From a virus, in IMG/VR virus record IMGVR_UViG_3300026097_000010, positions 1 to 64,000 of that record: a stretch of DNA of 64,000 bases. The stretch is one strand, 5' to 3'. A program made the position numbers and the translations under genes. Position 1 is the stretch's first letter. Every line of letters starts with the position of its first letter. Below are positions 25,863 through 50,794 of this stretch, one piece after another. A model generated the notes under the pieces. It had not been told where the DNA came from. It was given only the letters and a program-made list of their open reading frames with translations, and did no database searches.

Positions 25863-25901
25863 GACTTTATTTATAACGGCACCTAATGCATAAATATTTT
25901 C
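25863..25901. promoter_or_regulatory. Back-to-back late-type promoters (TATAAATA on -, TAAATA on +)
   Basis: TATAAATA-6nt-ATG(25862) on -; TAAATA-5nt-ATG(25902) on +. Confidence 0.7.
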
Positions 25902-26477
25902 ATGGTTACTCCTGTAAGATTTATACACATTGAAAAATGTGGAGGCACATCGGTTGCTAAATTCCTAAATGACAATAATTTTGATTTTTTAATGGGTAAA
26001 AATTTTAAAAAGAACAAAAAGCATTCTCATGCCGCAATGTTTGAACATGAGGATAGTTTTAAATTTACTGTTGTAAGAAATCCGTATACCAGATTAATTA
26101 GTTTTTATAATTACAATAAAAACAAGATCGGAAACTGCACTTTTGAAGAATTTGTTAAAAATAAATTAACAGAAAATCTCATAACTCTTCAGGTCATGAA
26201 AATTCATAAACCAATCGAAAATGCTGTTTTTGGGCCAATGTCGATAAGAGAATTAGAAAAACAATTTCATTGGGATAAAATGTTGGTTGATAAAATTTTC
26301 AAACTAGAGAATTTACAAGAACTAAAACAATACTTAAAAATAGATGCAGAATTTCCGATCGAAAACAAATCTATAAAAGCTAATCCGGAAAGTTATTACA
26401 ATTACGAACTTAAAGAAATTGTTGCAGATCACTTTAAAAAAGATTTCGAAATATTAGGATACAATTCAGAATTATGA
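25902..26477 (+). CDS. Sulfotransferase (Sulfotransfer_2-like)
   Basis: FIHIEKCGGTS, RNPYTRLISFY. Confidence 0.85.
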   Translation: MVTPVRFIHIEKCGGTSVAKFLNDNNFDFLMGKNFKKNKKHSHAAMFEHEDSFKFTVVRNPYTRLISFYNYNKNKIGNCTFEEFVKNKLTENLITLQVMKIHKPIENAVFGPMSIRELEKQFHWDKMLVDKIFKLENLQELKQYLKIDAEFPIENKSIKANPESYYNYELKEIVADHFKKDFEILGYNSEL

Positions 26478-27046
26478 AAAGATTTATACACATCCCTAAA
26501 ACAGGTGGAACCTCTATTAAGGAATGGCTTAGAAAGTTCACTGATGAAAAAATATTAGTTGATCTCGGATCGAATATTACAGGCTATCACAATCATCGTA
26601 TGCACTGTCGATGGTATAAGTTTAAAGGCGAGCGAACTGAAAAATTTTCTACTATTAGAAATCCGTTTCATAGGACTGTAAGCGGTTATAATTATTTAAA
26701 ATTTAAATTGAATAATCCTGCTCGAAAGATAGTATCTGAATCTTTTGAAGATTTTGTAATTTCTAGTTTGTTAGATTCTGCCGACGAAGTATTTTTACCT
26801 CAAATTTATTGGCTTAAACCTAGATCTAAAAGATTTCTTAAAGTTGAACATTTTTTTAAAATCGAAACAGAAATAGAAGAACTTCAATATTACCTCGGCT
26901 ATCATGCACCGATTCCTAAAATTAACATTAGCACACAGAAAAAATATGCAGAGTTTTACAAATCTAAAGAAGTACAAGATATTGTAAGAGAAAAATATTA
27001 TCTAGATTTTAAATTATTAGGATACGATATAGATACTATAGAGTAG
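26474..27046 (+). CDS. Sulfotransferase (Sulfotransfer_2-like)
   Basis: FIHIPKTGGTS, RNPFHRTVSGY. Confidence 0.85.
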   Translation: MKRFIHIPKTGGTSIKEWLRKFTDEKILVDLGSNITGYHNHRMHCRWYKFKGERTEKFSTIRNPFHRTVSGYNYLKFKLNNPARKIVSESFEDFVISSLLDSADEVFLPQIYWLKPRSKRFLKVEHFFKIETEIEELQYYLGYHAPIPKINISTQKKYAEFYKSKEVQDIVREKYYLDFKLLGYDIDTIE

Positions 27047-27491
27047 CATCATCCAACCCGGCGGTTCTAAGTTTAACAATATTACTTAGCTGCCACTGTT
27101 TGATATCTAGTCCTTTGATCACTCCTAGCCATTTGTTGCGAAGTAATGCAAAGTCGTTGATAATTTTTTCAAAGTCTACAACATCAGATTCGCCGTCTAC
27201 AAACTTTTCACAGTCTCTACTACTCAACGCTCGTTGATAATTTTCTAGATACTTGCGAAAGTATTGGCTTCGCAGACGGCGAAGCTCAATGTTTAGATAT
27301 TCGAGGATTGCTTCCATTTCTTGAAGCTGGTTAAATCGTGTTTCTACCAGAGCTGGCATATTTGCACTGGCTCTTTCAATTCTTCCGCTGATTTGCATTT
27401 CTTGTTTTGCTTCTACAAGCTCTGACTCGAAATACTTAATTGCATCAGGGATAACACTAATGTCTCTAGAAACACGATCGTACCAGTTCAT
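27036..27491 (-). CDS. uvsY: Recombination mediator UvsY-like
   Basis: Helical 151-aa protein ending IKQWQLSNIVKLR; downstream of uvsX. Confidence 0.72.
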   Translation of the reverse strand: MNWYDRVSRDISVIPDAIKYFESELVEAKQEMQISGRIERASANMPALVETRFNQLQEMEAILEYLNIELRRLRSQYFRKYLENYQRALSSRDCEKFVDGESDVVDFEKIINDFALLRNKWLGVIKGLDIKQWQLSNIVKLRTAGLDDATL

Positions 27492-27716
27492 TTAGTCCTC
27501 ATAATACTCGTCATCGTCAATAACTTCATCGTCAATAGCATATTCTACAGCACTATCTAGATGCGGGTCAACCCCTAATAGTGACTCTATTACAGATTCC
27601 TTAATACCATAATCTAATAGGATATTAATAAACTCTGCGGCTACGTCTTCTCTCTGTTTTTCTGGGATGTGCCCTACTACAACCTGCCAGAGGTCGCCGA
27701 TTAAGTCTTCTTTCAT
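27492..27716 (-). CDS. Small acidic hypothetical protein
   Basis: 74-aa ORF coupled to uvsX by TAATG. Confidence 0.7.
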   Translation of the reverse strand: MKEDLIGDLWQVVVGHIPEKQREDVAAEFINILLDYGIKESVIESLLGVDPHLDSAVEYAIDDEVIDDDEYYED

Positions 27717-28786
27717 TATTGTTCATTCTCCGTTTGAAGCTCTTCGTCATCGACCTCAACAACATCAGCAATATCTGGCTTGTTGACAATATCTCGCATT
27801 ACCATATCGAGTTTTTCGCCAGTCCAGTTTTTACGGTATTCTAAATGTGTCTCTCCATCGAGGTCTGTGTATTTAAGTCGATTTCCATCTTTCTTTAACA
27901 AACCTTTTGCTTCAAACAGATCTACAAGTCCTGAATAAGGATCCATACCTGTTTCGTATGGAATTTTTACCTGTACACTTTCAAACGGTTTTGCATAGCG
28001 TGTTTTCATAACCTTACACGCCGCACGAATACCGTTCACAGTTGTGGTCTTGTTACCGTCTAAGTCTTCTTTTAATTTCAGTTTCTTCATTGCAATCACA
28101 ATAGAACTTGCATACACAAATCCTTGTCCGCCTGAGATTTTGTCATCTGGGTCAAACATATCTTGGCTTGCATATGTGTGGTTAGTACATACCATTCCTA
28201 CATTGTAGCTACCAAACATATTAACACAGTTACGGACAAGTGCTGTAAGTGCTTTAGGCTTACGACCCATATCACCTTTAAGGTCACCTTTGCCAAACTG
28301 ATCAACATCAGTGGGTGTTAATAGCATACCTAAACTGTCAATAACAAACAGAACTTTAGGACGATCTTCTTCCGACATATCTTTGTATTCTTTCATAAAC
28401 TCGGATACAGTTTTTGCTACGTCGTCAATCATTGCCATGTTAAGTTTCAATAACTTATCTTCGCTTGTGTCTACACCTAATGCGTGTAACCATTTTTCAT
28501 CTAGTGCGTTTTCTGAATCAACCAGCACGACGAAAATGCCTTGTTCCTGTGCGGCTTTTACAATATTACCTGAACAAAAATAACTCTTGCCTGAACCGGA
28601 TTCGCCTGCAAAAACTGTTACTTTGCCAAGCGGAACTCCTTTGTGAAAATCGCCACTAACAAGATAGTTCAGTGCGTAATTTCCTGTGCTGACCCAATCT
28701 GTAGGATCATTAAAGCCTACGCCAAGACCGTCAATGCTCTTGGTCAGACTTTTTCTAAACTTTGATAAATCGAATGCTTTTGCCAT
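27716..28786 (-). CDS. uvsX: UvsX/RecA-like recombinase
   Basis: AGESGSGKS, DSENA, VIDSLG, NHTY, SGG. Confidence 0.93.
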   Translation of the reverse strand: MAKAFDLSKFRKSLTKSIDGLGVGFNDPTDWVSTGNYALNYLVSGDFHKGVPLGKVTVFAGESGSGKSYFCSGNIVKAAQEQGIFVVLVDSENALDEKWLHALGVDTSEDKLLKLNMAMIDDVAKTVSEFMKEYKDMSEEDRPKVLFVIDSLGMLLTPTDVDQFGKGDLKGDMGRKPKALTALVRNCVNMFGSYNVGMVCTNHTYASQDMFDPDDKISGGQGFVYASSIVIAMKKLKLKEDLDGNKTTTVNGIRAACKVMKTRYAKPFESVQVKIPYETGMDPYSGLVDLFEAKGLLKKDGNRLKYTDLDGETHLEYRKNWTGEKLDMVMRDIVNKPDIADVVEVDDEELQTENEQ

Positions 28787-28863
28787 TTTATCTCCTAATC
28801 TAAAAGCAGAGTAACCCCCCGATGTGAGCAGACTATGTCCTAGGCTTGGGGGGTATTGTTATT

Positions 28864-29889
28864 TTATTCTTGACCTTTACGGGCACGGATCATTGCTAGA
28901 ATGTCCTGTGCTCGGCCGGCACCTTCTTCACCGTTGTCTGATGATTCTGCTTGTGGAGCAGGTTCTGCCTCTGGCTTAGGATCAGGGTCAAACGGAACAT
29001 CTTCCTTTGTCTCTGGAACGGGTGCTGATTGTGGAGCACTTTGACTTGTAGCTGTTGCCGCTGGGCTTGCTGATACATTAGGATCACCTGTACGTGCCTG
29101 CATACCCGCCGGACGGAAGTATTGACTCCAACGATCTGGATCATATGCTTCGCCATCAACTGATGCTTCGAACATTTCGTGCATTACTTTCATTTCTACA
29201 TCAGTAGGCTTTTTAGGAAGGAAGTCTGAAAGATTGAATAACCCGTGGGCATCAACAGCCGCGGCTTCTTCTTCAGTTAATGCTCGTTCACGACGACTCC
29301 ACTGCGAAGTAGAATAATCTGCATAGCCGCCTTTTGATGTCTTTTTAATACGGAAGTCTACACCACGCATATAATCAGTTGGCAGTTCTTCTAACTCTGG
29401 ATCCATAAGAGCACCTTTGATGATCTGGAAGATCTGAGGTCCAATGATAAATCGACGAATTGGATTTTCTGGAACAGTTTCCTCATTGAGAGGATCTTCT
29501 GCAACAAAGCCTTGGAAGATGTAACTACGCTTTTTCCAATACTTACGGCCCATGTCTTCAAGACTCTTGTCTTTGAACCAGCCACGCACTTCTGAAAGGA
29601 TTGGACAACTTTGTCCGTCGTTGTACATTTCTACACAGGGAATTTGTACCTGTACTGGGCGTGAGTCAGTTTCGCCTTTAATGCCAGCGAATGGCAATTT
29701 AATCATTGCTCGCTCAACCCAAAAGAATGTGTTGTTAGTGTCGCCATCAGGTAAGAAACGGATTACCGATTCTTTGCCTTCTTGCATGTTCCAGTGTGGA
29801 TAAATTGCGTTGTCACCGCCTGTTTGACGATTGCTGCCGGTGTTTTGTGATTCTGCTAGTTTAGCACGAATTTCTGCTAATGATGCCAT
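28864..29889 (-). CDS. Single-stranded DNA-binding protein (gp32-like)
   Basis: IRFLPD, C..CPI, YWKKRSY, G.DF.IKK..KGGYADY..S. Confidence 0.85.
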   Translation of the reverse strand: MASLAEIRAKLAESQNTGSNRQTGGDNAIYPHWNMQEGKESVIRFLPDGDTNNTFFWVERAMIKLPFAGIKGETDSRPVQVQIPCVEMYNDGQSCPILSEVRGWFKDKSLEDMGRKYWKKRSYIFQGFVAEDPLNEETVPENPIRRFIIGPQIFQIIKGALMDPELEELPTDYMRGVDFRIKKTSKGGYADYSTSQWSRRERALTEEEAAAVDAHGLFNLSDFLPKKPTDVEMKVMHEMFEASVDGEAYDPDRWSQYFRPAGMQARTGDPNVSASPAATATSQSAPQSAPVPETKEDVPFDPDPKPEAEPAPQAESSDNGEEGAGRAQDILAMIRARKGQE

Positions 29890-29948
29890 TTTGTAGCCTC
29901 CTATTTGTTTTGCCTTTTAAATGGTATATGCCTAAATGCATAACATAT

Positions 29949-29977
29949 ATTATGCACTTTTTATTTAGCCTTGTCAA
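29949..29977 (-). promoter_or_regulatory. sigma70-type promoter TTGACA-17-CATAAT with TAAATA embedded in the spacer
   Basis: tgtcaa at 29972-29977, attatg at 29949-29954 and tattta at 29962-29967 on +. Confidence 0.72.
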
Positions 29978-30003
29978 CGAAAATAGTATTTTTATGTGTC
30001 CAA

Positions 30004-30031
30004 AATAAAAGGCCCTGTTGGGCCTTTTATT
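30004..30031. terminator. Intrinsic terminator hairpin
   Basis: AATAAAAGGCCC-TGTT-GGGCCTTTTATT directly after the stop of the 858-aa gene. Confidence 0.85.
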
Positions 30032-32606
30032 ATAATCCTGACAGTTTTTGTATTCTTGCCAGTTCTTCTAGTTCTTCTGCACCTTGTTCTTGTGCCGGTG
30101 CCATACGCTCAACCATTTTGCGAGCAACTAGTTCTGCATCTTCGCCAAACTTCTTGCCTACCATAAGAGCGACTCCTTGTGGGCCTTTAGGGAAGGTACC
30201 CGAATCTCTATCATAGCAACTCATTATGAATTCAGCAATACTTTCTAGAGTATGCTCTTCACCATCCGAAGTTTTAAATTTGGTGCCTTTTGGCTTGCCC
30301 TGTGATTTAAGATCTTGAACTTTCTTAGCAAACTCATTGCCTTCAATTTCAACATCGTCCATCATATCATCCATTGGATCGTCGTCATATTCTTGTCTAA
30401 AATCAAAGTCATCATTATCATCTTGGTCAGCTGTGTAATCATCGCCGTAATCATCTGCAATATTATTCATCATTCGATCAAAAATATCTTCATAATCGTC
30501 GTCTGGATGCAACCCGTTGTCTACAGCTACATCATTATACATATCTTCTAGTTCTTTTTGCACTTTAGGACCATATTTGCCCGCCATTGCGTCTTTTATC
30601 ATATCGTAGCCGTCATCGCCACTATCAGCAACTTTTTGTTTGAACTCTTCCGGATCCATTCCTTCTGCAACAGGTTCTTCTACTCCAGCTAGGTTTAGAA
30701 TGCTATCTAATTCTTCACTCATACCTAATTCCTTGTCCAGTGCATCTTTGTAATCTTGGAATTTTCTAGGATCGTTTTTAAACATATCTGTCGTTTTTAT
30801 TATTTTAAGAGTTTCATCGTATCCTTTCTCGTTAACGGCTTTAACTAAAACTTCAACAAACTCTGGATCAGGATATGGTCTTGGTTTTATCTCAATATCG
30901 GACTCATCATCATCGGCTCCCATTCTCTGAGCAAGAGTACCTGCTTTCATTGCTCCGATGCCTGTTCCTATTCCTGCGGCAGCCGCACCTATGCCAGCCT
31001 TGGCTAACATATCTAAGAACTCGCGTCTTGTTGCTTCGTCGAGATCTACATCCAAATCTTCTTCTTGCGGCTCGACTTCGTCAGCACCAACTTTGGGTTG
31101 TGTTTCTTCGTAGTCGCCAAAGTCAAGTTCTTCAACAACTTCGCTGGCATTTTCTTCTAGCCAATCTTTGACCAAACTGCGTACATCTTGACTTGAATCT
31201 TCTTTTGCCATCGTTTTAATTTCTTGTTCTAGTCTTGGATCGTCAATGATGCCTTCTAGACTCTGTATAGCATTAGTACCGTCTACACCTGCTGGAAATT
31301 CTTGGCCTACTAGTTCTTGTAGTTCTGCGATGGCATTCTGTTTTTCTTCATCATCCGACGACTGTATTGCAGATTGCTCGCCAAGTGTCATTGCCCAATC
31401 TTCAAATTTAGCAAAAGGATCGCTTTCGCCCATTGCCTGTTTCATACCTTTTTTAGCAAGTTTCTTGGGTACATTTTTCTTTTTAATAGGATTACCAAAC
31501 TCGTCGGTGTCTGGTGTCGTTTCTTCATCTGGTTCAAATGGTGGTTCGTCTTCTTCTTTTGCTTCTGTTGTCATTGCGACTATGTCGTCGTAGCCTACTT
31601 CATTCTTCTCTTGCATTAATCTGTATAATACTGGGAACACTGAAGTAATATCTTCCTTGAAACTTTTTACAGTAAACTGGTCTTTTAGTTGTTCCATCAT
31701 TTCTTCTGGAACTTCTGGTTGTTCGATTGCCTGGAAGTTTTCAACAAACGCCTCGTAGTGCTTTTGCTTGCCTAATCTTGCTACTTGAGATTTTAACTGT
31801 TCTAATTGAGCGGTACTACGTTCGACCACAGTGTTGTTGTCGGAGTTCATTAGGTCGTTGCGTACCACATAGTTTTTAAAACTTTTTAACTGAGCAATTT
31901 CTTCACTCATTTTGATAATACTAGAACCGATATCATCGTAAGGAACACCACCGTTGGCAACGTGTCTTTGCATTGCTCTAGCACCTGCTAGATGAATAAA
32001 CGGATATTTGAATCTTTCACCTTCACAGTTTTCAACGAACAGTGCAGAAATATTTCTGGTTCTTGCTCCTGGTGTGGCATCATCCATAACAGTCTTGCTG
32101 TGCTTAATGATTAGCCTGGTATCTTCTAGCTTTTGGAAACTCTGTGTTCTAGTTCCGTACATGTTACTTTCATTCATTATTCCTTCTCCGACGGGTGTTG
32201 TAACTGAATCTGGTGTGGTTGGTTTAGGAGTTGCATACTGACTTAAAAATGCATAATCTCTTCTATCCAAATTATCTTTTGCGATGTCTCTAGTATCAAA
32301 TGCTAACAGTCTACGTTTGGCAAATTGACGCAACTCTTTTAAAAACTTATACCAATTGTTTTTTTGACCATCATCCATACCTTCGGTAATGCCAGTAGAA
32401 AAATAAACCTTCATCGAATTAGGTTCTGCAAGACTTACTGTGATATGTCCGATGGGATTTTCTCCTTCGGTATAGTTAAAATCAAAGAATCTTGCATCTT
32501 CTGGATTAATGGTAATCTGGCTGGTTTCGTCGCCAAGTTTAAGACCAGAAAATCTACTTCTGATCTTGTAAAATAAATCTGTTGCTATATTATTGGTTGC
32601 ATCCAT
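30030..32606 (-). CDS. Large acidic virion/prohead-core-like protein
   Basis: 858 aa, very D/E-rich; many (L/V/M)xE-G/S sites; repeated ELxxIxxLxG(L/V); follows terminase; late motif upstream. Confidence 0.55.
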   Translation of the reverse strand: MDATNNIATDLFYKIRSRFSGLKLGDETSQITINPEDARFFDFNYTEGENPIGHITVSLAEPNSMKVYFSTGITEGMDDGQKNNWYKFLKELRQFAKRRLLAFDTRDIAKDNLDRRDYAFLSQYATPKPTTPDSVTTPVGEGIMNESNMYGTRTQSFQKLEDTRLIIKHSKTVMDDATPGARTRNISALFVENCEGERFKYPFIHLAGARAMQRHVANGGVPYDDIGSSIIKMSEEIAQLKSFKNYVVRNDLMNSDNNTVVERSTAQLEQLKSQVARLGKQKHYEAFVENFQAIEQPEVPEEMMEQLKDQFTVKSFKEDITSVFPVLYRLMQEKNEVGYDDIVAMTTEAKEEDEPPFEPDEETTPDTDEFGNPIKKKNVPKKLAKKGMKQAMGESDPFAKFEDWAMTLGEQSAIQSSDDEEKQNAIAELQELVGQEFPAGVDGTNAIQSLEGIIDDPRLEQEIKTMAKEDSSQDVRSLVKDWLEENASEVVEELDFGDYEETQPKVGADEVEPQEEDLDVDLDEATRREFLDMLAKAGIGAAAAGIGTGIGAMKAGTLAQRMGADDDESDIEIKPRPYPDPEFVEVLVKAVNEKGYDETLKIIKTTDMFKNDPRKFQDYKDALDKELGMSEELDSILNLAGVEEPVAEGMDPEEFKQKVADSGDDGYDMIKDAMAGKYGPKVQKELEDMYNDVAVDNGLHPDDDYEDIFDRMMNNIADDYGDDYTADQDDNDDFDFRQEYDDDPMDDMMDDVEIEGNEFAKKVQDLKSQGKPKGTKFKTSDGEEHTLESIAEFIMSCYDRDSGTFPKGPQGVALMVGKKFGEDAELVARKMVERMAPAQEQGAEELEELARIQKLSGL

Positions 32607-32619
32607 AGTATTGTATTTA

Positions 32620-34206
32620 TCAGAGTATGCCGCTTACAAAGATAGGCATTGGCATCTCTTCTTCTGATACTTTTTCTGTCATCTTTTCGTAAATCTTGGG
32701 ATCCCAGTCCGCTAACACATCTGCCATTCTGATCACAATTAACAGAGATGCAACCAAGTCGTCGTGTTCTCCACTCTTGGCACCGAAGCCAGTGCCTTGG
32801 GCAACAAACGTTTTAAACTCTGATATCAAAGGCTTTGAATGCACGATCATTTTGCGAGTTTCTAATAGATTCTTAAGTTTTGAACAGGCTGTGATTTTTG
32901 CCTTGTGTGTGGTATTAAATCCTTTGCGGTAACGTCTAACGTGACCTCTGCGAATCGGTTCGCTAATAAACAGTCCGTGAAAGTTTTCTTCACCGATGTC
33001 TGCAATAACTACCAATGCCGCTTCACCTAGTGTATTGTTTTCTACTGAGTAATAGATCTGTGGGGGACTGCCTTTTTCTTCACCTTGTTCGTGAATAAAT
33101 TTAAGGATTTCTCGCATTGTTTTTACCTGTTGCTGAACAGGAGTAGTGTTCGATCTCCACTCGCCGACTTGTTCCATACTAGGCATTTCGAATACCTGAA
33201 TAGCTCCGTAGTCGCCGCCGGTACCTAGACTAGGATCTAGTGCCACCATGTATGTTGCTTTGGGATTAATATCTTTGTACCAGCGAGTCTGTCCCATTGA
33301 TAAGATAGGATCTTTACCCTCTAGTTCAGCTAACTTAACAGCATTGATGAGTGTTTCGTCAAAGATCAAAAACTCACAGTCAAATTCTCGACGGAATCGT
33401 TCTTCACCAATTTTTGCTTTTTCTGTTGCGGCCCAGGATTCATTACGATCTGGATGTCTGTCCCAATGTGCAAAAAACGGATAAAACCCATTAGTGCCTA
33501 CTTCTTGATCATTACCAAACTCGTCAAACTTTTTATTAGCTTCAGTCCAAATCATAGCAAACTGATCTTCATCCGAGTTAGGTGTTGAAGTTACAATACA
33601 CTTACCACCTGTTGACAGCGTAGGTGAAAGTGCTGTCCAGAATTCTTTGGCTTTTTCAGGAGGTTGCACAAATGCAAACTCATCACAATAAATCAATGAT
33701 AGAGATTTACCACGTCCAGTATCTTCTGTTGTTGTAGTTGCTTGTACACGACTACCGTTGTCGAATTCAATTGTATTCCTGTTATACGAATATACACCTG
33801 CTCTAATAAAATCAGGCAACGACTCGTAACCGTATCTGAAACGATTCATAATATCCTGGGCACCTGTGTATTTGTGTGCGGCAATTAAAATCTGTGCTTC
33901 GGGTGTAAACATCGAATACCAAAGCAAATAACCTGCGGCACACGTAGTCTTACCCATCTGGCGAGGTAACATTGCTACAGTATAACGATAATCATGATAT
34001 GCTTTTAACATTTCTTCCTGATATTCGTAAGGAACAAATGGCATACTACCTTTAGTGGGGTGCTGAATTTGAAGAAATGTTTTACAAAAATATAAAGGAC
34101 CGTCGACGGGATCCATACATTTTTCTAAATGTTCAACTTCTTCTAGTGTGTATTTTTGTGGCGTATGAGCCTTTTTAATCTGAACGCCGTCAAGTGATTT
34201 ACTCAT
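32620..34206 (-). CDS. terL: Terminase large subunit (gp17-like)
   Basis: YEYQ, PRQMGKT, GRGKS..YCDEFAF, TSTPN, DPSLG.GGDY, HDDLV; probable start MSKSLDG (34206). Confidence 0.95.
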   Translation of the reverse strand: MSKSLDGVQIKKAHTPQKYTLEEVEHLEKCMDPVDGPLYFCKTFLQIQHPTKGSMPFVPYEYQEEMLKAYHDYRYTVAMLPRQMGKTTCAAGYLLWYSMFTPEAQILIAAHKYTGAQDIMNRFRYGYESLPDFIRAGVYSYNRNTIEFDNGSRVQATTTTEDTGRGKSLSLIYCDEFAFVQPPEKAKEFWTALSPTLSTGGKCIVTSTPNSDEDQFAMIWTEANKKFDEFGNDQEVGTNGFYPFFAHWDRHPDRNESWAATEKAKIGEERFRREFDCEFLIFDETLINAVKLAELEGKDPILSMGQTRWYKDINPKATYMVALDPSLGTGGDYGAIQVFEMPSMEQVGEWRSNTTPVQQQVKTMREILKFIHEQGEEKGSPPQIYYSVENNTLGEAALVVIADIGEENFHGLFISEPIRRGHVRRYRKGFNTTHKAKITACSKLKNLLETRKMIVHSKPLISEFKTFVAQGTGFGAKSGEHDDLVASLLIVIRMADVLADWDPKIYEKMTEKVSEEEMPMPIFVSGIL

Positions 34207-34220
34207 ACTTTTACTTATCC

Positions 34221-34247
34221 AAAAAAATAGGGCCAAAAGGCCCTATT
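34221..34247 (-). terminator. Intrinsic terminator
   Basis: AATAGGGCC-TTTT-GGCCCTATT followed by a T-run on -. Confidence 0.82.
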
Positions 34248-34261
34248 GATTTTATTAAAAT

Positions 34262-34720: not shown

Positions 34721-34722
34721 TC

Positions 34723-35553: not shown

Positions 35554-35555
35554 TG

Positions 35556-36128
35556 TTAACTCCCGACAGGGCTGTCTTTCCCTGTCTTTCCTTCTTTTGC
35601 TGTTGTTTCTAAAACATCTAAGTCAGTGTTGTCCTGGCCTAGTTCTTTTTTACGTTCTTGTGCTGCCTTTGCTAGGTCTGCTAAAAATCCTTTGTTAAAT
35701 TCGTCACCAAAATAATCTTTGTGTTCTACATCCGGCGACTCTGCATAAGTTTCGTCTGTTAACAATGAACCTTCACGCTGATCGTCCATAAGTTCTTGAT
35801 CGATTTCGCTAGGCTCTAAGCTGCCTCTGACTTTGAATTTAGAAGGTGCAACACCCATTTCTAGAATTTCTTGATGAATTTCAGGGCTAGTAATAGGATA
35901 TTCACACACTAAATCAAACACTGTTACTTCAGCGTTTCTGGCTTCTGGAAAATCTAAAGGAGCTTCTTGAATAGGAGTTGTTTTGATTTTATCAAACGTT
36001 ACAATTCCACAACGATCAACGCGAGTTTTTAGATCTTCTTGAAAGTTTTCTGGGACTTCGCCAGCAACTTTGATCTTGAAACCATAAACTTTTGTGCTTT
36101 CTGTTAAGTATTCTTTAAAGGTTTTCAT
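35556..36128 (-). CDS. Putative internal head protein with T4-type capsid-targeting sequence
   Basis: N-terminus MKTFKEYLTE resembles the T4 internal-protein CTS MKTYQEFIAE. Confidence 0.6.
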   Translation of the reverse strand: MKTFKEYLTESTKVYGFKIKVAGEVPENFQEDLKTRVDRCGIVTFDKIKTTPIQEAPLDFPEARNAEVTVFDLVCEYPITSPEIHQEILEMGVAPSKFKVRGSLEPSEIDQELMDDQREGSLLTDETYAESPDVEHKDYFGDEFNKGFLADLAKAAQERKKELGQDNTDLDVLETTAKEGKTGKDSPVGS

Positions 36129-36136
36129 ATGTGTAT

Positions 36137-36619
36137 TTATTCCTTTTTGCCCAATTTCTTCAATAACTCGTTGCGGTCAGAAATAATATATCCTGAACCG
36201 TTTACAACTTCGCCTTCTGCTTCGGGCATATCCTTGTCAATTTTATATTTTTTCATTTGTAAATCTACGGCCTTTAGCTTTTTATCAATTTTTGCTGTTT
36301 TAGCATCTATGGCATTTTTCATCATAGAGCTAGCAACTTCAAAAATTCTGCCGCTGTATCTTACTTCTACATTCATTCCGAGATCCATCAAATCGTCGTA
36401 GGCTTGTTCTGCTTTTGATGCTAGCGAGTCTAGTTCATTGTCAGATGCATCGTCTAGTTCGGGGATTTCTGGAAGAGATTTTGTGATATCTTTAACCGCT
36501 TCGAAGCTGTCATCAAGACTTTTAACCTGTTCGTGTGCGGGAACTTCAGGTTCAACCACTTCGGGCTCAACCTTGTTTTGTTCTTCTAAATTAAACAGTT
36601 CTTCTAGTTTTTTGGTCAT
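36137..36619 (-). CDS. Terminase small subunit (gp16-like)
   Basis: Helical core ..GRIFEVASSMMK.., C-terminal DRNELLKKL; size and position. Confidence 0.6.
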   Translation of the reverse strand: MTKKLEELFNLEEQNKVEPEVVEPEVPAHEQVKSLDDSFEAVKDITKSLPEIPELDDASDNELDSLASKAEQAYDDLMDLGMNVEVRYSGRIFEVASSMMKNAIDAKTAKIDKKLKAVDLQMKKYKIDKDMPEAEGEVVNGSGYIISDRNELLKKLGKKE

Positions 36620-36627
36620 ACTATTAC

Positions 36628-37068
36628 TTATCTACGTTTTTTACCGTTATGGAAAATATCTTCTTCGGTTACAACTCTAAATTTAATTCGTTTTTGTTTA
36701 CACCAGGCAGTTGCTGCCTCCCATTTCGCAAGATTTTTCACATACTGTTCTTGATTATATCCGCTTTTGCCAACACGCTCTCTCAACGTGTGATTGGTAG
36801 GCTTTACTTCTATCAGTTCTGCGTTTTTCTTTCCGTTTTTGTCTTGATATACGATAAAAAAATCTGGTACATATATCGTGGATTTACCTGTTAACGGATC
36901 TCTATATGGTATCTGTATACTTTCACTGGCCCAAGATTCCACACCGGGATGCTCGTCTAGCATTTTCATAAACACAAACTCCCAACTGCTTCTAGCGTGT
37001 GGAGATTTTTTACCCACGTATTTACTGGGGTTTTTTGGTTCAAATCTTCCTTGGGCAAATCTTGGCAT
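36628..37068 (-). CDS. Head completion nuclease (gp4-like, TnsA-like PD-(D/E)xK fold)
   Basis: GRFEPKNPSKY.G, RSSWE, WASE..IPY, YVPDF, IEVKP, KWEAA..F.VVTE. Confidence 0.88.
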   Translation of the reverse strand: MPRFAQGRFEPKNPSKYVGKKSPHARSSWEFVFMKMLDEHPGVESWASESIQIPYRDPLTGKSTIYVPDFFIVYQDKNGKKNAELIEVKPTNHTLRERVGKSGYNQEQYVKNLAKWEAATAWCKQKRIKFRVVTEEDIFHNGKKRR

Positions 37069-37433: not shown

Positions 37434-38536
37434 TATGAAGATCCTTCTGTACTAGTTAGATTTTTCTGCGTAGCTATTGTTGCTTGATCTGAATTATCAT
37501 TTTTAGGAAATACAGCTCCAGCAATCCCCGCAATTGTTGATACTCCTGCTGGACTTGATATAATATTTACTGCTTCTTGTTTAATGTCATCGACAGAAAG
37601 ATCCTTAAAATTCTTATATGTGTTTGCGGCTCGAATTGCTGTGCCTAAAAAATTCTGCGGAGAATCAAATGCCTGGCCGCTACCGACTGCTCCGAATATT
37701 GATTCTAGGCCATCTAGTAATCCGCCTTCTCCTACAATCGATCCGACTCCTCCGCCGGCAACAGTTAAAGGACTAGGAGTAACATCGTAGTGTAGGTCTG
37801 CAAAGCCTTTAATACCTTCGCTTACTCTTCCGCCGCCATAAATTACCGCTTCGTATTCTACGTCCATAGAATTTTCAGCTGGATCGGCACTTTGTGAATA
37901 ATCCATTTCGCTGTGTTTCCAAGTGGTAATTTTAGGATTTACTAGTGTATAACTTAAAAATCGTTGTCTACTCATCGTGTAGATAGTAATACTTTTAAAT
38001 AAGTCAACGGATTTGTCGTTGTCTAGCCCATACCTAAAATCATCATATTTTGTACCTGCTTGACGATACTTTGTGTCTCCGTAAGCGGAAATGATACTAG
38101 ATCCGATATCTCGTACACTTGCTGTGTTTCTGTCTGCTATGTAATAACCATAATATATAGCCCACAATGCATTCACAACTCCGGCACTGTCGTCGTGAAA
38201 ACTAAACGATATAGGATCATAGTTGATCATTTTATATATTATTCGTTTACGATTATACTGATTCTTGGTTTCTGTGTCGAATTTAAAGCTAGGTAAATCT
38301 GTACGTTTAACCAACATACCGAACTCTTCGATTTCTTTGTTTCCAAATTTAGGTGCTTTAAATGCTGTTCTGTCAATTTCGAATCTAACAAAATAATTAA
38401 ACTTGGTTCTCGGAGCCAGTCTAAAAGTGTCATCGATAAACAGTCTCGAAGCGTGTCTATAGTCAGACGAAATGCCTTTAGGATTTGTTAAACCCGATGT
38501 AAATCCTGTAAGGAATCTTGTGAATTTATTTGCCAT
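37433..38536 (-). CDS. Tail-tube-fold baseplate/tube initiator protein (gp54/gp48-like)
   Basis: DLPSF.F.TETKNQYNRKR..YDPI..FHDD, Y.LVNP.I; adjacent to the tube gene. Confidence 0.65.
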   Translation of the reverse strand: MANKFTRFLTGFTSGLTNPKGISSDYRHASRLFIDDTFRLAPRTKFNYFVRFEIDRTAFKAPKFGNKEIEEFGMLVKRTDLPSFKFDTETKNQYNRKRIIYKMINYDPISFSFHDDSAGVVNALWAIYYGYYIADRNTASVRDIGSSIISAYGDTKYRQAGTKYDDFRYGLDNDKSVDLFKSITIYTMSRQRFLSYTLVNPKITTWKHSEMDYSQSADPAENSMDVEYEAVIYGGGRVSEGIKGFADLHYDVTPSPLTVAGGGVGSIVGEGGLLDGLESIFGAVGSGQAFDSPQNFLGTAIRAANTYKNFKDLSVDDIKQEAVNIISSPAGVSTIAGIAGAVFPKNDNSDQATIATQKNLTSTEGSS

Positions 38537-38552
38537 ACTATTATTTAGCCGT

Positions 38553-38585
38553 AAAAAAAGCCCAGTTTTTATACTGAGCTTTTTG
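38553..38585. terminator. Intrinsic terminator after the tail tube gene
   Basis: AAAAAAAGCCCAGT-TTTTAT-ACTGAGCTTTTTT. Confidence 0.8.
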
Positions 38586-42686: not shown

Positions 42687-42793
42687 TCCCATATCTCCTG
42701 GTAATAGTAATTTGTAGTAGTATTTAGTGTACTCTGATAAAAAATACCGTTTAACACCGTGAAAAAAGGGGAAGGAAAGGTGTAAATATTGCT

Positions 42794-43129
42794 ATGAGAC
42801 CATTATGCAAGTGCGGTATACGCCCTAAAGCCGTAAATTACAAAAAGAACGGAAAGACCTACTACAGAAGTCTCTGTGAGGTGTGTATGAACAATGGTGT
42901 TTATCACGGTGTGCCTAGGTGGTATAGAGCAGGTTATCGAATCAAAGATCACTGTGACAAGTGCGGATATAAATCACAGTACAAAGATGTATATAGGGTG
43001 TATCACGTTGACGGGAATCTTGATAACTGTCGTCGCAGTAATCTCAAAACTGTGTGTGCAAATTGCAGAATTGTGCTTGCCAAAGAAGGAACTGCCTGGA
43101 AGCAAGGAGATTTAATCGCCGACTTCTAG
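42794..43129 (+). CDS. Small Zn-finger/HNH-like protein
   Basis: CKC, CEVC, CDKC, HVDGNLDN..NL..VCANC. Confidence 0.72.
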   Translation: MRPLCKCGIRPKAVNYKKNGKTYYRSLCEVCMNNGVYHGVPRWYRAGYRIKDHCDKCGYKSQYKDVYRVYHVDGNLDNCRRSNLKTVCANCRIVLAKEGTAWKQGDLIADF

Positions 43130-43735: not shown

Positions 43736-43760
43736 TTATAACTCCTTTGGAAGAAGTTAT

Positions 43761-43789
43761 ATTATAACAAGTTATTGTGTGAGTGTCAA
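43761..43789 (-). promoter_or_regulatory. Consensus sigma70 promoter TTGACA-17-TATAAT for the dNMP kinase (leader with GGAG SD)
   Basis: tgtcaa at 43784-43789 and attata at 43761-43766 on +. Confidence 0.85.
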
Positions 43790-44088: not shown

Positions 44089-44843
44089 CCTATAATCCAA
44101 CTGTAGCCTTGTCCACCCGGTACTAATGTAACCAGTTCAACAGTGAGTCTGTCTAGATCCGACTGTGCTTCTGCTTTCATTGCCGCACCGTTTAATGCTG
44201 TTCCGCCTGCAGGGCCAGCAATAGTAGCAAACTTTTCTCTGGCTTGGCCTAGCATATACTTACAGTTAGCAAGCGTGTAATCTTTAATCCACTGTCCTGC
44301 ATATGTGTCGCTGATTATCACACTGTCTGGCTTGGTGTTATAAACCCAAAGAAGAACCTGCTCGTCACCTCTTGGTCTTTGTTGTATAATTAGTTTACGG
44401 CTCTGTGGATGCCAGGTAAAGTTGATAAAAGATCCAAACATCTTGCCGACCAGCTCTTGATACTGTGCAAATAGTTCGTAAGTGGCTAGTCCGCCCATAT
44501 TAGTTGAGCTTAATAGATACGTATTTGTGTAAGCCAAATTAAAAGGCTCAAACACTGTTCCTCCGCCACCGCCGCCGGTGCGTGATCCAACACTGCGACG
44601 GAATATCTGTCTAACCTGTTGGATTTCTTGCGGAAGAATATATTCGTTTTGATCTTCGAGTAGATTCAAAGAACAGTAGCTTTCTTCGACAGCATTGTCT
44701 GATCTCTGTCTAAACACTGACAGTGATTTTTTCAATGCTGTTTCGTAATGAATAGGATCAAGTTCAACGTCTATCATTCCGTCGCCAAGCATTGTGCGAC
44801 AGTATTCGAATACTTCTTGTTTTTGTTCTTCAATCTGACTCAT
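44085..44843 (-). CDS. Neck protein (gp13-like)
   Basis: LG.GMIDVEL, WIKDY.LA..K..LGQAR.KF..GP.GG..LNG; probable start MSQIEEQ (44843). Confidence 0.85.
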   Translation of the reverse strand: MSQIEEQKQEVFEYCRTMLGDGMIDVELDPIHYETALKKSLSVFRQRSDNAVEESYCSLNLLEDQNEYILPQEIQQVRQIFRRSVGSRTGGGGGGTVFEPFNLAYTNTYLLSSTNMGGLATYELFAQYQELVGKMFGSFINFTWHPQSRKLIIQQRPRGDEQVLLWVYNTKPDSVIISDTYAGQWIKDYTLANCKYMLGQAREKFATIAGPAGGTALNGAAMKAEAQSDLDRLTVELVTLVPGGQGYSWIIG

Positions 44844-44871
44844 AGTTATATTTATCATAAATACTAGTACT
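44844..44871. promoter_or_regulatory. Back-to-back TAAATA late promoters in a 28-bp gap
   Basis: TAAATA-5nt-ATG(44843) on -; TAAATA-8nt-ATG(44872) on +. Confidence 0.72.
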
Positions 44872-46248
44872 ATGCCAAGACTCAGTTTATATCGCCCCGA
44901 AAAAGGCAATGATTACAAATTTTTTGACAAAACTATTTGGGAACAATTCCAAATAGGTGGTACCGATGTGCTGGTTCATAGATATCTAGGACCAGGTAGC
45001 TCTGGGGAAGAAACTGCGTCGACTCCTACATACGAAGGAGACAGCGTAAACAACATTCAAGATTTGCTGTTTTTAGAAAACAGAGACAGAAAATATGATC
45101 CTGATATCTATCAACTTAGATGCCATTACAGCATAACTGATATAGATTTTAATCTAAGCCAGTTTGGGTTGTTCTTACAGAACGACACACTGTTTATGAC
45201 ATTTCACATCAACGACACTGTTGAAAAATTAGGCAGAAAAATCATAGCGGGCGATGTTCTCGAGCTACCACATCTAAAAGATGAGTATGCCCTTAACGAT
45301 CTTCAATATGCACTCAAAAGATTTTATGTTGTAGAAGAAGTTAATCGAGCGGCTGAAGGATTTTCGCCGTTATGGTATCCTCATCTATACAGAGCTAAAT
45401 GTGTACCAATGGTAGACAGCCAAGAATTCAAAGAGATTTTAGACGATATTGCAAATACTGATGCTTATTCTGGTACATACAATCCCGATATTACATACTT
45501 CCCTGGTGAAATTGTGCTGGGCGAAGACGGTGTCAAATACGAAGTAGTCAGAGAAGTCTCAGGCATTGCTCCGCCGGATTTAACATACTATCAGGTAGCA
45601 GACACTCTCAGAGATATAGTGAGCACATATGAAAAAGAAATGCAGATTACGCAGGCTGTTCTTGATCAAGCCGAAGAGGACGCTCCACAGAGTGGATACG
45701 ATGTTACCAAGTTTTTCCATATCCAAAAAGACGACGAAGGAAAAGCATCACTAGTAAGAGCAGACAGCGACGAACTGTTAATTCCTAGCACCGACGAAGA
45801 CGGCAATACCATCTATGACGAGACAGGCGAGCCGGTATATATGGCTGTTACCGCTGATACTGTGTTACAGACTTCTGAATACAACAAGTATCCCGGGTAT
45901 CTTACAGGCGACGGTGTCCCCCAAAATGGTGCTCCGTTTACACAGGGCATAGCATTTCCTATTAATCCCGGCGAAGGACAATATGCACTCAGAACTGACT
46001 ATCTGCCTAATCGACTGTTCCGATATAACGGAGTAAGATGGCAACGAATCGAAGACGATGTGAGAACGACTATGAGCAATCTCGGTAACAGCGATACACA
46101 AACAGGTGCCGAGTTTGAAGGTAAAGATCAAAGACAAACACAACTAAGTGGGTTTGTAAACAACGACAATCAAACAACCGTTGATGGCAAGACTGTACAA
46201 GAAAAGCAAAGTCTGTCAAAGGCACTTAGACCAGAGGCAGACGAATAA
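44872..46248 (+). CDS. Neck/head-closure protein (gp14-like) with extensions
   Basis: LSQFGLF..D..FH, GDVLELPHL; lies between the gp13-like and gp15-like genes. Confidence 0.65.
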   Translation: MPRLSLYRPEKGNDYKFFDKTIWEQFQIGGTDVLVHRYLGPGSSGEETASTPTYEGDSVNNIQDLLFLENRDRKYDPDIYQLRCHYSITDIDFNLSQFGLFLQNDTLFMTFHINDTVEKLGRKIIAGDVLELPHLKDEYALNDLQYALKRFYVVEEVNRAAEGFSPLWYPHLYRAKCVPMVDSQEFKEILDDIANTDAYSGTYNPDITYFPGEIVLGEDGVKYEVVREVSGIAPPDLTYYQVADTLRDIVSTYEKEMQITQAVLDQAEEDAPQSGYDVTKFFHIQKDDEGKASLVRADSDELLIPSTDEDGNTIYDETGEPVYMAVTADTVLQTSEYNKYPGYLTGDGVPQNGAPFTQGIAFPINPGEGQYALRTDYLPNRLFRYNGVRWQRIEDDVRTTMSNLGNSDTQTGAEFEGKDQRQTQLSGFVNNDNQTTVDGKTVQEKQSLSKALRPEADE

Positions 46249-47693: not shown

Positions 47694-47704
47694 TACATAC
47701 TAGT

Positions 47705-48079
47705 ATGAATCAAAGAGCCGGATTACTCTTTTTAGCTAAAAACACAGGTCGTATACTTCTTATACTAGAAGAACAAAAATGGACCGTACCCACTTTTTCT
47801 AGAAAACAATCGTTACTAAACGATGCAGAATTTCTTATAAAAGAATATTCTCCTGGAAAAATTTTACCCATAGAATTGTATACATCTAAAGATAAAGGAT
47901 TTGAATTCGGTACCTATGTGTGTTTAGTAGAAGAAGAGTTTTTAACAACTGTGCCTAAAACACTATCCTGGTGCGATTTAAATTTTCTTCCTAACAATTT
48001 GCACTTAGGTATCAAAAGCACATTAAATAATGCAATAATTAAAACTAAAATCGAAACAGTACTGGAGTTGAATTTATAA
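47705..48079 (+). CDS. Degenerate Nudix-fold-like protein
   Basis: AGLLFLAKNTGRILL..W..P and W..LP..LH.G framework; Nudix box eroded; start moved to ATG 47705. Confidence 0.5.
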   Translation: MNQRAGLLFLAKNTGRILLILEEQKWTVPTFSRKQSLLNDAEFLIKEYSPGKILPIELYTSKDKGFEFGTYVCLVEEEFLTTVPKTLSWCDLNFLPNNLHLGIKSTLNNAIIKTKIETVLELNL

Positions 48080-48327
48080 TGAACTTAGAAAAAAGTCAAA
48101 GATTTCAAAAAGAATATCAAAAATATAAAGAAAAAATTGATATCATAGAAAATCCTAAAATAAAAAGTGAAGCTGAACTATTACTTAAATCACTAGTGGC
48201 TGAGGTAAAAAGAATAAACGATCATCACAGTAGATTGTTAACTAGTGGTTCTTTGTCCGATATGGTCCAAGATAGCAGACACAGAATCGTAGAAATTCGA
48301 AAGAAGATAGAAAAAATAATTAAATAG
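48079..48327 (+). CDS. Small coiled-coil hypothetical protein
   Basis: 82-aa ORF coupled by TAATG. Confidence 0.65.
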   Translation: MNLEKSQRFQKEYQKYKEKIDIIENPKIKSEAELLLKSLVAEVKRINDHHSRLLTSGSLSDMVQDSRHRIVEIRKKIEKIIK

Positions 48328-49207
48328 CACTTATGCTTTTAATAGTAATAGCACCGACCATTGATGCATGAATAGAACATTGGTATCTAAAATTAGGCGG
48401 CGATGATAATCCGGTAGGAACTTTCCAGTATAGCGTTCCGCTATCTTTACCTTGTGCATTTACTCCGGTGCTGACTGTTCCGTTTGTTGCAACATGTACT
48501 AATCCTGTATCGTAATTACTTCCGGTGCCATCTTGGATTAAAAAAGGATGTCCTTGCGCGGTAAGTTTGAATGCGATGGTTGTTCCTGTTATTACATATA
48601 ATGCTGGATTATCTGTAGATCCGTATTGGTCAAATCTATAAGAACTTGCTCCGTTGTTTGATACAATTAATTTTGTAATAGCCGGCAAATATATTTCGTC
48701 AATAGTTAATCCAGTAGTCTGTGCATCAGTTAATTCTGTGAAACTAGATGCTCCGCCACCGCCGTCTTGTGTCCCAGTATATGATATAGTTACAACTCCG
48801 TCTGCAACAGAAGTACTAATGTCAGTACCTCCAGCAAACGTTATACTATCAGTTGGCGAAGATGCAACTTGCGATCCGGTGTCTCCCGCAATTGATGAAA
48901 ATAAATTTTGTTGTACACCTTCTCCGCCGCCTTCGTCAACTGTTGCTGACGAAATGGTAATCGAATCTGTATTCGGATTGGTTGTTATAGTTATATTTTC
49001 GCCGGCTATAAGTGTTAACACATCTTCTTTTTGATCGGCGACAATGTCTTCTTGATCCTGAACTGTTATAGTCTTAAAGGTATCAGGAATACTAGCAGGA
49101 CCAGCAGATGTTACTATATTCCATGCAAATCCGTTATACTCCCAAGTAGTTCCGTCTAAAATATATGTTTCAGATATTTCTGGATTTTCTGGAAAATTTA
49201 TTGCCAT
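48320..49207 (-). CDS. Virion fibre-like protein with C-terminal cupredoxin-like motif
   Basis: MAINFP..W.YNG.AW N-terminus, T/G-rich repeats, GHPF..YQCSIHASMVG. Confidence 0.65.
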   Translation of the reverse strand: MAINFPENPEISETYILDGTTWEYNGFAWNIVTSAGPASIPDTFKTITVQDQEDIVADQKEDVLTLIAGENITITTNPNTDSITISSATVDEGGGEGVQQNLFSSIAGDTGSQVASSPTDSITFAGGTDISTSVADGVVTISYTGTQDGGGGASSFTELTDAQTTGLTIDEIYLPAITKLIVSNNGASSYRFDQYGSTDNPALYVITGTTIAFKLTAQGHPFLIQDGTGSNYDTGLVHVATNGTVSTGVNAQGKDSGTLYWKVPTGLSSPPNFRYQCSIHASMVGAITIKSISAI

Positions 49208-49216
49208 GTTATTTCC

Positions 49217-50755
49217 TTATGATGAATATGTTGTTATAGATCCTAACACTTCCCAAGTAGACCCTGTGTTAATTAGTGTAAAAGAAATTACATCTGTCGA
49301 CTCGTTATTAGGTGATGGCTCGATTCCGTCTTGCCATTGAATTGTCTGTGTGGCTCCATCAATTTGAACTTGATTTGGTAAGTAAGCAGTTGCTCCCTGA
49401 TTTAAAAGTAACACAATTGTAATAGCACTGTCAATGCTGCTAGGAACATTTGTAAAATTGACAGTAAAATCGGTTGTCATACCATATAAGAACCAAACTG
49501 ATCCCTGTTCAAAATCAATATTTGATGTAGCACTCGGGTCTGCTAAGGTAGCCATTTTTTCTACTGTTTGCTGTAAAATAGTTGTTCCCGAAATTGTAAT
49601 ATCACCCGAGACTGTGAGATTATTTACAGCATTTATCAGTCCTGGTTGCCACCGGCTATTTCCGTCGTTCCATACCAATGCTTGAGAATCGGATGCTGAA
49701 ACTTGTGATAACGTATGTGTGTTAATTAATCCTTGGTCGGCATCGACTAGTAATGTCGAATCTGTGGAGAATACCGATGATGAAATTGATTCTGGAACTT
49801 CAGTTAAAAACGCTCGATCATTGTCAAGCTCACTTACTTTTTCAGGTATAGATGGCGTGTTTAGTATATCTTCATAACTACCTGTTTCACTAACTTTTGA
49901 TAATACAGGAAGATCAGTTAAGTCGTTATAGCTACCACTAAATGTCGGAAATGCTGGCTGGATCCATTGTTCTGTGTCTCCGTCGTTTATATAAACATAA
50001 AGATAACCAGTAGTCATGTCAAGCCATAAATTACCATTTTCTGGGTCTTCTGGGTTTTCCTCGCTAACTGTTACTCTGCTTCCGCCTTCGCCGATTCCAG
50101 GATCTGCAACAGCAATAGAATTTCCCATGTTTTGATGATTACTACACCAATAATAAAGAATTGCAGGAGTCGAATTAGTAACTAGTATTCGAACTTGTCT
50201 AGAAGTAGCTGTATTAAAAGCTTCGCTGTTGTATACGGCTTGAGTAACTTCGTTCGAATCTAAGAAATATTTTACATTTGTAGTGTAGCTAGTGCCGCCA
50301 TCGAGCTCACCGTTGATGTTATCTGCAGAAAAATTCAACGGATGAGGATTAGGAGTAGTGTTATTCCCGTTTGGAAAATATACATTGGTTAAATCATCTT
50401 GAACAAATATATATGTATAACCTACCACAAAATTCGGTTCGGGGTTATAAATTGCATTTAGATTATATTTGTTTGATAATGTAGAATCGTCCGGATCTGG
50501 ACCTGTAACAGTTACATTATATACCACAGTTGATACATTAGATTCAACGATTTTATCTCTAAATGTATCAACTGCTATATTAGAAAAATCTGCTCTGGCT
50601 AAGCTTAAACCGCCTTTTACAGTTGAATCAAAAAGTCGTAGTGTGTCAAACTCTCGATCATAAAAAATTTCTCCTAGATTTCCAACACGACGATTAAGAA
50701 AATCTGATTCTCTAGGAATAATTCTTACAGCGGTAAATGTTTCAATTTTAGACAT
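49217..50755 (-). CDS. Virion fibre-like protein with internal cupredoxin-like motif
   Basis: HPLNFS..LYYWCSNHQNMG, P.NG.LW.D, SGSYNDLTDLP repeats. Confidence 0.65.
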   Translation of the reverse strand: MSKIETFTAVRIIPRESDFLNRRVGNLGEIFYDREFDTLRLFDSTVKGGLSLARADFSNIAVDTFRDKIVESNVSTVVYNVTVTGPDPDDSTLSNKYNLNAIYNPEPNFVVGYTYIFVQDDLTNVYFPNGNNTTPNPHPLNFSADNINGELDGGTSYTTNVKYFLDSNEVTQAVYNSEAFNTATSRQVRILVTNSTPAILYYWCSNHQNMGNSIAVADPGIGEGGSRVTVSEENPEDPENGNLWLDMTTGYLYVYINDGDTEQWIQPAFPTFSGSYNDLTDLPVLSKVSETGSYEDILNTPSIPEKVSELDNDRAFLTEVPESISSSVFSTDSTLLVDADQGLINTHTLSQVSASDSQALVWNDGNSRWQPGLINAVNNLTVSGDITISGTTILQQTVEKMATLADPSATSNIDFEQGSVWFLYGMTTDFTVNFTNVPSSIDSAITIVLLLNQGATAYLPNQVQIDGATQTIQWQDGIEPSPNNESTDVISFTLINTGSTWEVLGSITTYSS

Positions 50756-50794
50756 ACTGTATTTATTACTTTTTACAGTTATCGAACACCACTA

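Follow-up and report, generated by a model that had tools for sequence, protein, structure and literature searches.

How the late genes of an uncultured aquatic giant phage are expressed when a short A/T-rich box ends only a few nucleotides before their start codons is the question raised by IMG/VR record IMGVR_UViG_3300026097_000010, of which the first 64 kb, hereafter called the window, was analysed. An earlier note on this DNA had paired 12 copies of a TAAATA-like motif with ATG codons and taken them for a leaderless late regulon. All 12 pairs were present, and the spacers were as described, except that the one before ATG 25862 is 5 nt long (aagtc) and not 6 nt. On the evidence of the sequences compared below, we consider it probable that these motifs are late promoters fused to the ATG, giving leaderless or near-leaderless mRNA; the messages of many virion genes would most likely have their 5' end at the start codon and lack a leader for ribosome binding.

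The whole record has 152,482 bp (37% GC; 42% complete according to CheckV) and comes from a T4-superfamily myophage. Genes for UvsX, gp32, the large and small terminase, tube, sheath, a gp15-like protein, an adaptor and a deoxynucleoside monophosphate (dNMP) kinase were located in the window, and those for portal, prohead protease, major capsid protein and fibres beyond it. A near-identity DNA search against cultured phages gave no match. Judged by the large terminase, the closest cultured phage was the Pseudomonas jumbo phage PA5oct (53% identity, syntenic), followed by Sinorhizobium phage Phosso, Agrobacterium phage Atu_ph07 and the Rak2-like phages GAP32 and CBB (44%). The same protein had 470 relatives in IMG/VR, and the best 80 of these (77-82% terminase identity), taken as terminase-centred loci, formed the comparative set; among them was a contig of 353,123 bp that is 98% complete (G001). 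For the whole record as well as for G001, genes were called by simple open reading frame (ORF) rules, and hexamers were tallied at positions -14 to -4 of ATG gene starts, with 2000 shuffles of the upstream 40-mers serving as the null.

Enrichment and spacing of the TAAATA box

The positional enrichment on which the earlier proposal depended was borne out, as TAAATA was the top hexamer at -14 to -4 and stood above the AT-rich background. It preceded 11 of 113 genes in the record, against 0.29 expected from its genome frequency (shuffles: mean 1.5, maximum 7), and 26 of 368 genes in G001 (mean 3.2, maximum 10), so that in both it occurred at gene starts at about 37 times the genome frequency. 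The remaining top hexamers were Shine-Dalgarno (SD) words (AGGAGA, GGAGAA) or words overlapping the box. Counted from the side of the motif, 45 of the 361 TAAATA copies on both strands of the two genomes (12.5%) sat 4-6 nt before a gene-start ATG; the single-base variants did so in at most 0.8% of cases, including AAAATA, TAAAAA, TATATA and TAAATT, and only TAAGTA (3.8%) was enriched at starts. Of the 15 hexamers made up of four A and two T, TAAATA was the one found least often within genes, with sense and antisense copies about equal in number (48/44 and 65/49). Such depletion on the antisense strand is not explicable by avoidance of stop codons and points to a signal at the DNA level.

Distances between box and ATG fell into two modes, a narrow one peaking at 4-6 nt (range 3-8) and a broad one at about 14-35 nt, with few boxes at about 7-17 nt. 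Roughly half of the boxes belonged to the first mode, near the ATG, and the other half to the second, with AGGAG leaders. The near class, allowing alternative in-frame ATGs, comprised 14 genes in the record and 42 in G001; in the latter the spacer was 4-6 nt in 34 of the 42 genes, with a mode of 5 nt. ATG was the initiator in 56 of 58 box-proximal starts. The lack of an SD sequence in the near class was confirmed by a median anti-SD duplex energy of about 0, compared with -5.4 to -5.8 kcal/mol in the far class with its AGGAG-type sites; energies of -6 kcal/mol or lower were found in 2-7% of near-class versus 38-47% of far-class genes. The spacers had also been described as often ending in AGT or ACT, and a pyrimidine indeed preceded the ATG in 13/14 genes of the record and 37/42 of G001. 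For near-class sites chosen by their TAAATA core, an A stood directly before the box in 11/14 and 21/42 cases, with a weak preference for G before that A. No -35-like element was detected, the columns 12 to 3 nt upstream of the box being unconserved in both spacer classes.

It was also noticed that 36-40% of the near-class genes come first after a strand switch, which is above the value for genes generally (p 0.012 and 0.0025). The TAA of the box doubles as the stop codon of the upstream gene in 2/14 and 8/42 near-class genes; these cases are so few that translational coupling cannot be the general explanation.

Short-spacer sites and their conservation

Across the 80 terminase loci, nine near-class orthologue groups keep the box 4-7 nt from the ATG while flanks and spacer vary: the head protein, the large and small terminases, a 190-aa virion protein, the tube-like protein, an HNH-like protein, two divergent adaptor-region genes and a nucleotidyltransferase-like gene. 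Box and spacing were conserved across 50-80 relatives, and the SD genes (gp32, tube, sheath, dNMP kinase and others) retained their SD in the relatives.

A conserved arrangement precedes the 367-aa tube-like protein (ATG 38536; 38534..38579, minus strand), where a terminator hairpin (38579-38560), a T-run (38559-38553), 5 nt, TAAATA (38547-38542) and a 5-nt spacer follow one another. From 79 more distant loci (55-63% protein identity), 51 distinct upstream sequences were obtained, and hairpin, T-run, TAAATA and ATG were present in all 51, with a spacer of 5 nt in 45 and of 4 nt in 6. A metagenome scan with this protein for transcript-like contigs yielded 80 loci, none of which began at the ATG. 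As an observation on the terminator itself, the stem of the hairpin between tube and tube-like gene (38553-38579) showed paired changes across relatives, e.g. ccggg/cccgg, ctggg/cccag and ccaag/cttgg.

Similarly, the large terminase (ATG 34206; 34204..34247, minus strand) is preceded by a terminator hairpin (34247-34226) with a T-run, TAAGTA (34217-34212) and a 5-nt spacer, and in 78 of the 80 relatives the order is terminator, TAAATA, 4-5 nt, ATG. Directly after the TGA of the large terminase, TAAATA with a 7-nt spacer leads into the gene for the 858-aa head protein (ATG 32606; 32604..32619, minus strand), and a box 5-7 nt before this ATG was conserved in 80 relatives. In the orthologous head genes of Phosso, GAP32 and Atu_ph07, the box is separated from the ATG by an SD-bearing leader of 16-20 nt, and therefore the leader appears to have been lost in the present clade. 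For the 190-aa virion protein (ATG 36128; 36126..36139, minus strand), the box begins with the TAA that terminates the small terminase gene, the spacer has 5 nt, and the box was conserved in 63 relatives. The small terminase itself (ATG 36619; 36617..36630, minus strand) is preceded by TAAGTA, the TAA of which is the stop of the upstream gene, and by a 5-nt spacer.

Two divergent gene pairs have boxes placed back to back, with hardly anything else between the genes. In the 39-nt intergenic region of the first, TAAATA at 25873-25868 lies 5 nt before ATG 25862 (25860..25873, minus strand) of a 259-aa heptose-phosphate adenylyltransferase-like gene (phrog_7878), and TAAATA at 25891-25896 lies 5 nt before ATG 25902 (25891..25904, plus strand) of a sulfotransferase-like gene (phrog_3347); for the former, a box 4-5 nt before the ATG was kept in 20 of 26 relatives. 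The second pair (44841..44874) has an intergenic region (44844-44871) of only 28 nt, with TAAATA at 44854-44849, 5 nt before ATG 44843 (minus strand) of an adaptor-like gene, and TAAATA at 44858-44863, 8 nt before ATG 44872 (plus strand) of the gene for a 458-aa virion protein; both boxes were conserved in relatives and in G001. The two remaining TAAATA sites are located 5 nt before ATG 42794 (42783..42796, plus strand) of a 111-aa HNH-like gene, conserved in 46 relatives, and 4 nt before ATG 50755 (50753..50765, minus strand) of the gene for a 512-aa baseplate or fibre protein.

The variant boxes behaved differently. Both terminase subunits had been noted to use TAAGTA, possibly as a weaker promoter; at the small terminase TAAGTA was conserved in nearly all of 60 relatives, but at the large terminase it is peculiar to this genome, the relatives having TAAATA. 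The G of the small-terminase TAAGTA (36625-36630) lies after the upstream stop codon and is free of coding constraint, yet it is conserved in about 60 relatives. Here the promoter may be weak by design, or may differ in its timing. The TACATA found 5 nt before ATG 47705 (47694..47707, plus strand; 124-aa protein) is a doubtful variant box, being a singleton that occurs at starts at background frequency and lacks statistical support; the G001 orthologue of this gene has TAAGTA 4 nt before its ATG.

Three genes of the window had been set apart as having the motif further away together with an SD, and this description proved accurate, the boxes lying 15-28 nt upstream. The tail sheath gene (ATG 42692; 42690..42726, minus strand) has TAAATA at 42726-42721 and 28 nt including CAGGAGA, both box and SD being conserved in relatives. 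ATG 59017 (59015..59044, minus strand) follows TATAAATA and 19 nt including AGGAG, and ATG 13981 (13979..14002, minus strand) follows TAAATA and 15 nt including GAGG.

The gp55-like sigma factor and the proposed promoter

T4 late transcription is a textbook system, and the late genes of T4 have leaders with ribosome-binding sites. The gp55-like sigma factor that such a system calls for was identified in the same record, outside the window (95816-96658, 280 aa). It matched phrog_12791 (E 9e-81) and the T4 gp55 family phrog_234 (E 6e-24), with 39% identity to T4 gp55 over 69 aa, and a gp55-like sigma was also present in 4/4 relatives searched. The late genes bearing a box are those for terminases, head proteins, the tube-like protein, the adaptor, the baseplate or fibre protein, the sheath and the fibres. 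With its sharp sequence, nothing conserved upstream, depletion within genes, position before virion genes and an encoded sigma factor, the box agrees with the T4-type late promoter box envisaged in the earlier note. For phage CBB, an ATAAATA late motif and a gp55-like sigma have been proposed as the late system, and neither gp33 nor gp45 was found there (PMC5259590).

We propose that TAAATA, or more fully A-TAAATA, acts as a -10-like late box for which no -35 element would be needed, and that it would be read by the host RNA polymerase carrying the phage gp55-like sigma. The T4 late box starts at -13 (PMC2988020). Since the T4 box covers -13 to -6, leaving five bases to +1, a 5-nt spacer would put +1 on the A of the ATG, and the pyrimidine before the ATG suits a transcription start at that A. 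By analogy, a box ending 4-6 nt (range 3-8) before the ATG would let transcription start at the A of the AUG or no more than a few bases away; the resulting mRNA would be leaderless, or would have a leader too short for an SD, and ribosomes would load straight on the 5'-terminal AUG. Boxes lying about 14-35 nt upstream would give short leaders with AGGAG.

Several points weigh against this reading. The assumed distance between box and transcription start is that of T4, which has an only distantly related sigma, and spacers of 3 and 7-8 nt do not place +1 exactly on the A. Genes in tight clusters could be read from longer upstream transcripts. The gp45 clamp (phrog_223) had no match in the 42%-complete record and a weak one in G001 (E 0.0055). 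Finally, structure in the 5' coding region was slightly weaker in near-class than in SD genes in G001 (p 0.005), a difference that was not significant in the record.

Host-type promoters abutting start codons

In a sigma-70 promoter, the spacing TATAAT-N6-ATG puts +1 on the A of the ATG. Two such sites were found in the window, both on the minus strand: TTGACA-N17-TATAAT, 6 nt before ATG 2228 (2226..2263), which has an early-type leaderless layout, and TTGACT-N17-TATAAT, 6 nt before ATG 17832 (17830..17867). In G001, at least eight genes have a full host-type promoter before the ATG, e.g. those at 153483, 128500, 33598 and 327233. The spacing of these promoters in the record and G001 was 5-7 nt, with no SD, and they represent an early, host-type counterpart of the late layout. 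Since a complete -35/-10 pair cannot be explained as a translation signal, these sites lend independent support to the leaderless reading. The suggestion that leaderless late transcripts serve to escape host translation shut-off was not supported in its late-specific form, because canonical sigma-70-type promoters share the ATG-abutting layout.

Within 32-51 kb, the only perfect sigma-70 consensus (12/12, with an upstream TG) was located at 43761-43789 on the minus strand and drives the dNMP kinase, an early-type gene among late genes, for which TATAAT and SD are conserved in relatives.

Alternative explanations

The box could be a real late promoter while the near genes are mostly translated from read-through or polycistronic transcripts, by SD-independent initiation or by termination and reinitiation, so that a start close to the AUG would be a minor event. 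The cases in which the TAA of the box is the upstream stop (2/14 and 8/42) are what such a scheme would use, and several further near genes lie within 25 nt of an upstream gene on the same strand. However, the 36-40% of near genes that follow a strand switch are without an upstream transcript, other near genes stand directly behind conserved intrinsic terminators, and the valley at spacers of 7-17 nt is hard to account for if the length of the leader is irrelevant; we regard this explanation as unlikely, although it is the strongest of the alternatives. Much less probable is that TAAATA works in the mRNA, as an A/U-rich translation-initiation signal at a fixed distance from the AUG, and not as a promoter. 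The fixed distance and the lack of an SD would suit such a signal, as would the A/T-rich hexamers, in place of SD words, found upstream of genes in the candidate hosts SAR86 and SAR11; but other A/T-rich hexamers were unenriched, depletion of the motif extends to the antisense strand of genes, and the motif also lies at variable distance before SD-bearing genes (sheath, fibres) and 16-20 nt upstream of an orthologous gene in cultured relatives. Moreover, related phages have the same motif as a predicted late promoter.

A third view accepts the promoter and doubts the start codons, with transcription starting inside the annotated 5' end and translation further downstream. The simple ORF rules used to call gene starts leave scope for such errors, but similarity to relatives starts at residue 1 for nearly all matches of each short-spacer gene, alignment with the Phosso large terminase starts there as well, and annotated starts of coding sequences (CDS) in HTVC008M coincide with box-N5-ATG, so that we consider systematic mis-calling very improbable. 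Chance co-occurrence can be practically dismissed. At 37% GC, the raw count of TAAATA-N4-6-ATG in the record was 19 against 12 for the reversed control, which taken by itself might suggest coincidence, but the roughly 37-fold enrichment at gene starts went beyond all 2000 shuffles and the arrangement is conserved in relatives while the flanks vary; a chance origin is refuted by that enrichment together with the 51/51 conserved upstream sequences of the tube-like gene. The fusion of late promoters to start codons is accordingly the explanation that we prefer.

Expression levels, hosts and significance

The choice between leaderless and SD-bearing transcripts may tier expression, as the earlier note had put forward, and this fits the few genes compared. 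Near-class genes are both terminases, the 858-aa head protein, small virion proteins, the tube-like protein, adaptor-region genes, the baseplate or fibre protein, the HNH-like gene and sugar-modifying enzymes, and SD genes are the major capsid protein (TAGGAGAA), sheath, tube, protease, gp32 and UvsX. As far as these few genes go, the split matches that between low-copy and high-copy proteins.

It is plausible that the layout hints at the host lineage, as it is shared by the SAR11 phage HTVC008M but not by phages that infect Pseudomonas, Rhizobiales and enterobacteria. On the bacterial side, a small TATAAT-N6-ATG peak (6 genes) was found in 400 kb of a SAR86 genome and no such peak in 400 kb of a SAR11-like genome; in neither were SD hexamers among the top words at -14 to -4, and a strict full-promoter pattern at starts was unenriched in five SAR86/SAR11-like genomes. 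The closest cellular homologues of a 138-aa nucleotidyltransferase-like gene of the window (5435-5851, minus strand), with 61-74% identity, come from many single-cell genomes of SAR86 and SAR11-like bacteria, which gives a hint as to the hosts that the clade infects. In a search for phage translation factors, IF3 was not found. Genes for bS21 were present in G001 (33352-33510), HTVC008M (91237-91392) and PA5oct (170985-171143), as well as in Atu_ph07 and Phosso; a phage bS21 as the partner of the layout was ruled out, since PA5oct, Atu_ph07 and Phosso have it without the layout.

Somewhat speculatively, fusion of promoter to ATG could be a lineage-wide mode of phages on streamlined aquatic bacteria (SAR11/SAR86), comprising early and late promoters alike, in which the hosts would translate 5'-AUG mRNAs efficiently and the choice between leaderless and SD transcripts would set stoichiometry. 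Low-copy terminase, adaptor and enzyme genes would then be leaderless, as opposed to high-copy capsid, sheath and tube genes with an SD. Promoter boxes of the T4 kind are fused to the start codons of dozens of genes, both in this clade, which is uncultured, aquatic and very abundant, and in a SAR11 phage available in culture. Confirmation of the leaderless reading would explain why late-promoter prediction failed in pelagimyophages (PMC7029224), improve the calling of gene starts and operons in such phages, show that leaderless mRNAs are translated by their hosts, which are major bacteria of the ocean and difficult to study, and provide a simple sequence rule for protein ratios.

Comparison with known systems

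Counts of TAAATA-N4-6-ATG and of its reversed control separate the phages compared. The pattern exceeded the control in the present record (19 and 12, respectively), G001 (46 and 15), G002 (23 and 11), G003 (21 and 11) and HTVC008M (21 and 10), whereas by the same measure no box-N4-6-ATG layout was evident in T4 (12 and 15), PA5oct (33 and 47), Phosso (6 and 5), GAP32 (13 and 30) and Atu_ph07 (25 and 47).

The late promoters of T4 consist of TATAAATA at -13 to -6, served by the gp55 sigma, the gp33 co-activator and the gp45 clamp (PMC2988020). The present system resembles them in having a lone A/T box at -10 with no -35 element, which precedes virion genes on either strand, and in encoding a gp55 homologue. 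It differs in that 1) the core is TAAATA, usually with an A before it and with the first T little conserved, 2) about half of the boxes abut the ATG, whereas the late genes of T4 have SD leaders, and 3) the sigma has 280 aa, compared with 185 aa in T4. HTVC008M, a cultured T4-like phage of SAR11 (Pelagibacter), shares the layout, as 10 of 62 annotated CDS in its first 50 kb start 5-6 nt after a box, but it belongs to another family, Kyanoviridae, and has 147 kb. In a study of pelagimyophages, late-promoter prediction was unsuccessful (PMC7029224).

Placement of a -10 element such that the mRNA starts on the initiator codon of many genes has parallels in Deinococcus-Thermus, where a -10 box adjoins ORFs (PMC12340547), and in the Thermus phages phiYS40 and Lalka27a, in which most transcripts are leaderless (bioRxiv 10.64898/2026.04.20.719267). 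Those cases have mapped 5' ends, other promoter sequences and hosts in which leaderless mRNA is the norm; the phage described here, in contrast, also uses strong AGGAG sites, and its transcription starts are predicted from sequence. A literature search found no description of leaderless mRNA at the late box TATAAATA, nor one in work on leaderless mRNA dealing with gp55 or SAR11.

With CBB and GAP32, and with PA5oct as its closest cultured relative, the present phage has in common the motif before structural genes, a gp55-like sigma and a large terminase of 44-53% identity, along with synteny to PA5oct. ATAAATA is the predicted late promoter of the Rak2-like jumbo phages CBB and GAP32 (PMC5259590) and also of PA5oct. 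In PA5oct, GAP32, Atu_ph07 and Phosso, however, the box lies about 15-30 nt upstream together with an SD. What is new is that the ATAAATA promoter, already known from CBB, is fused here to start codons.

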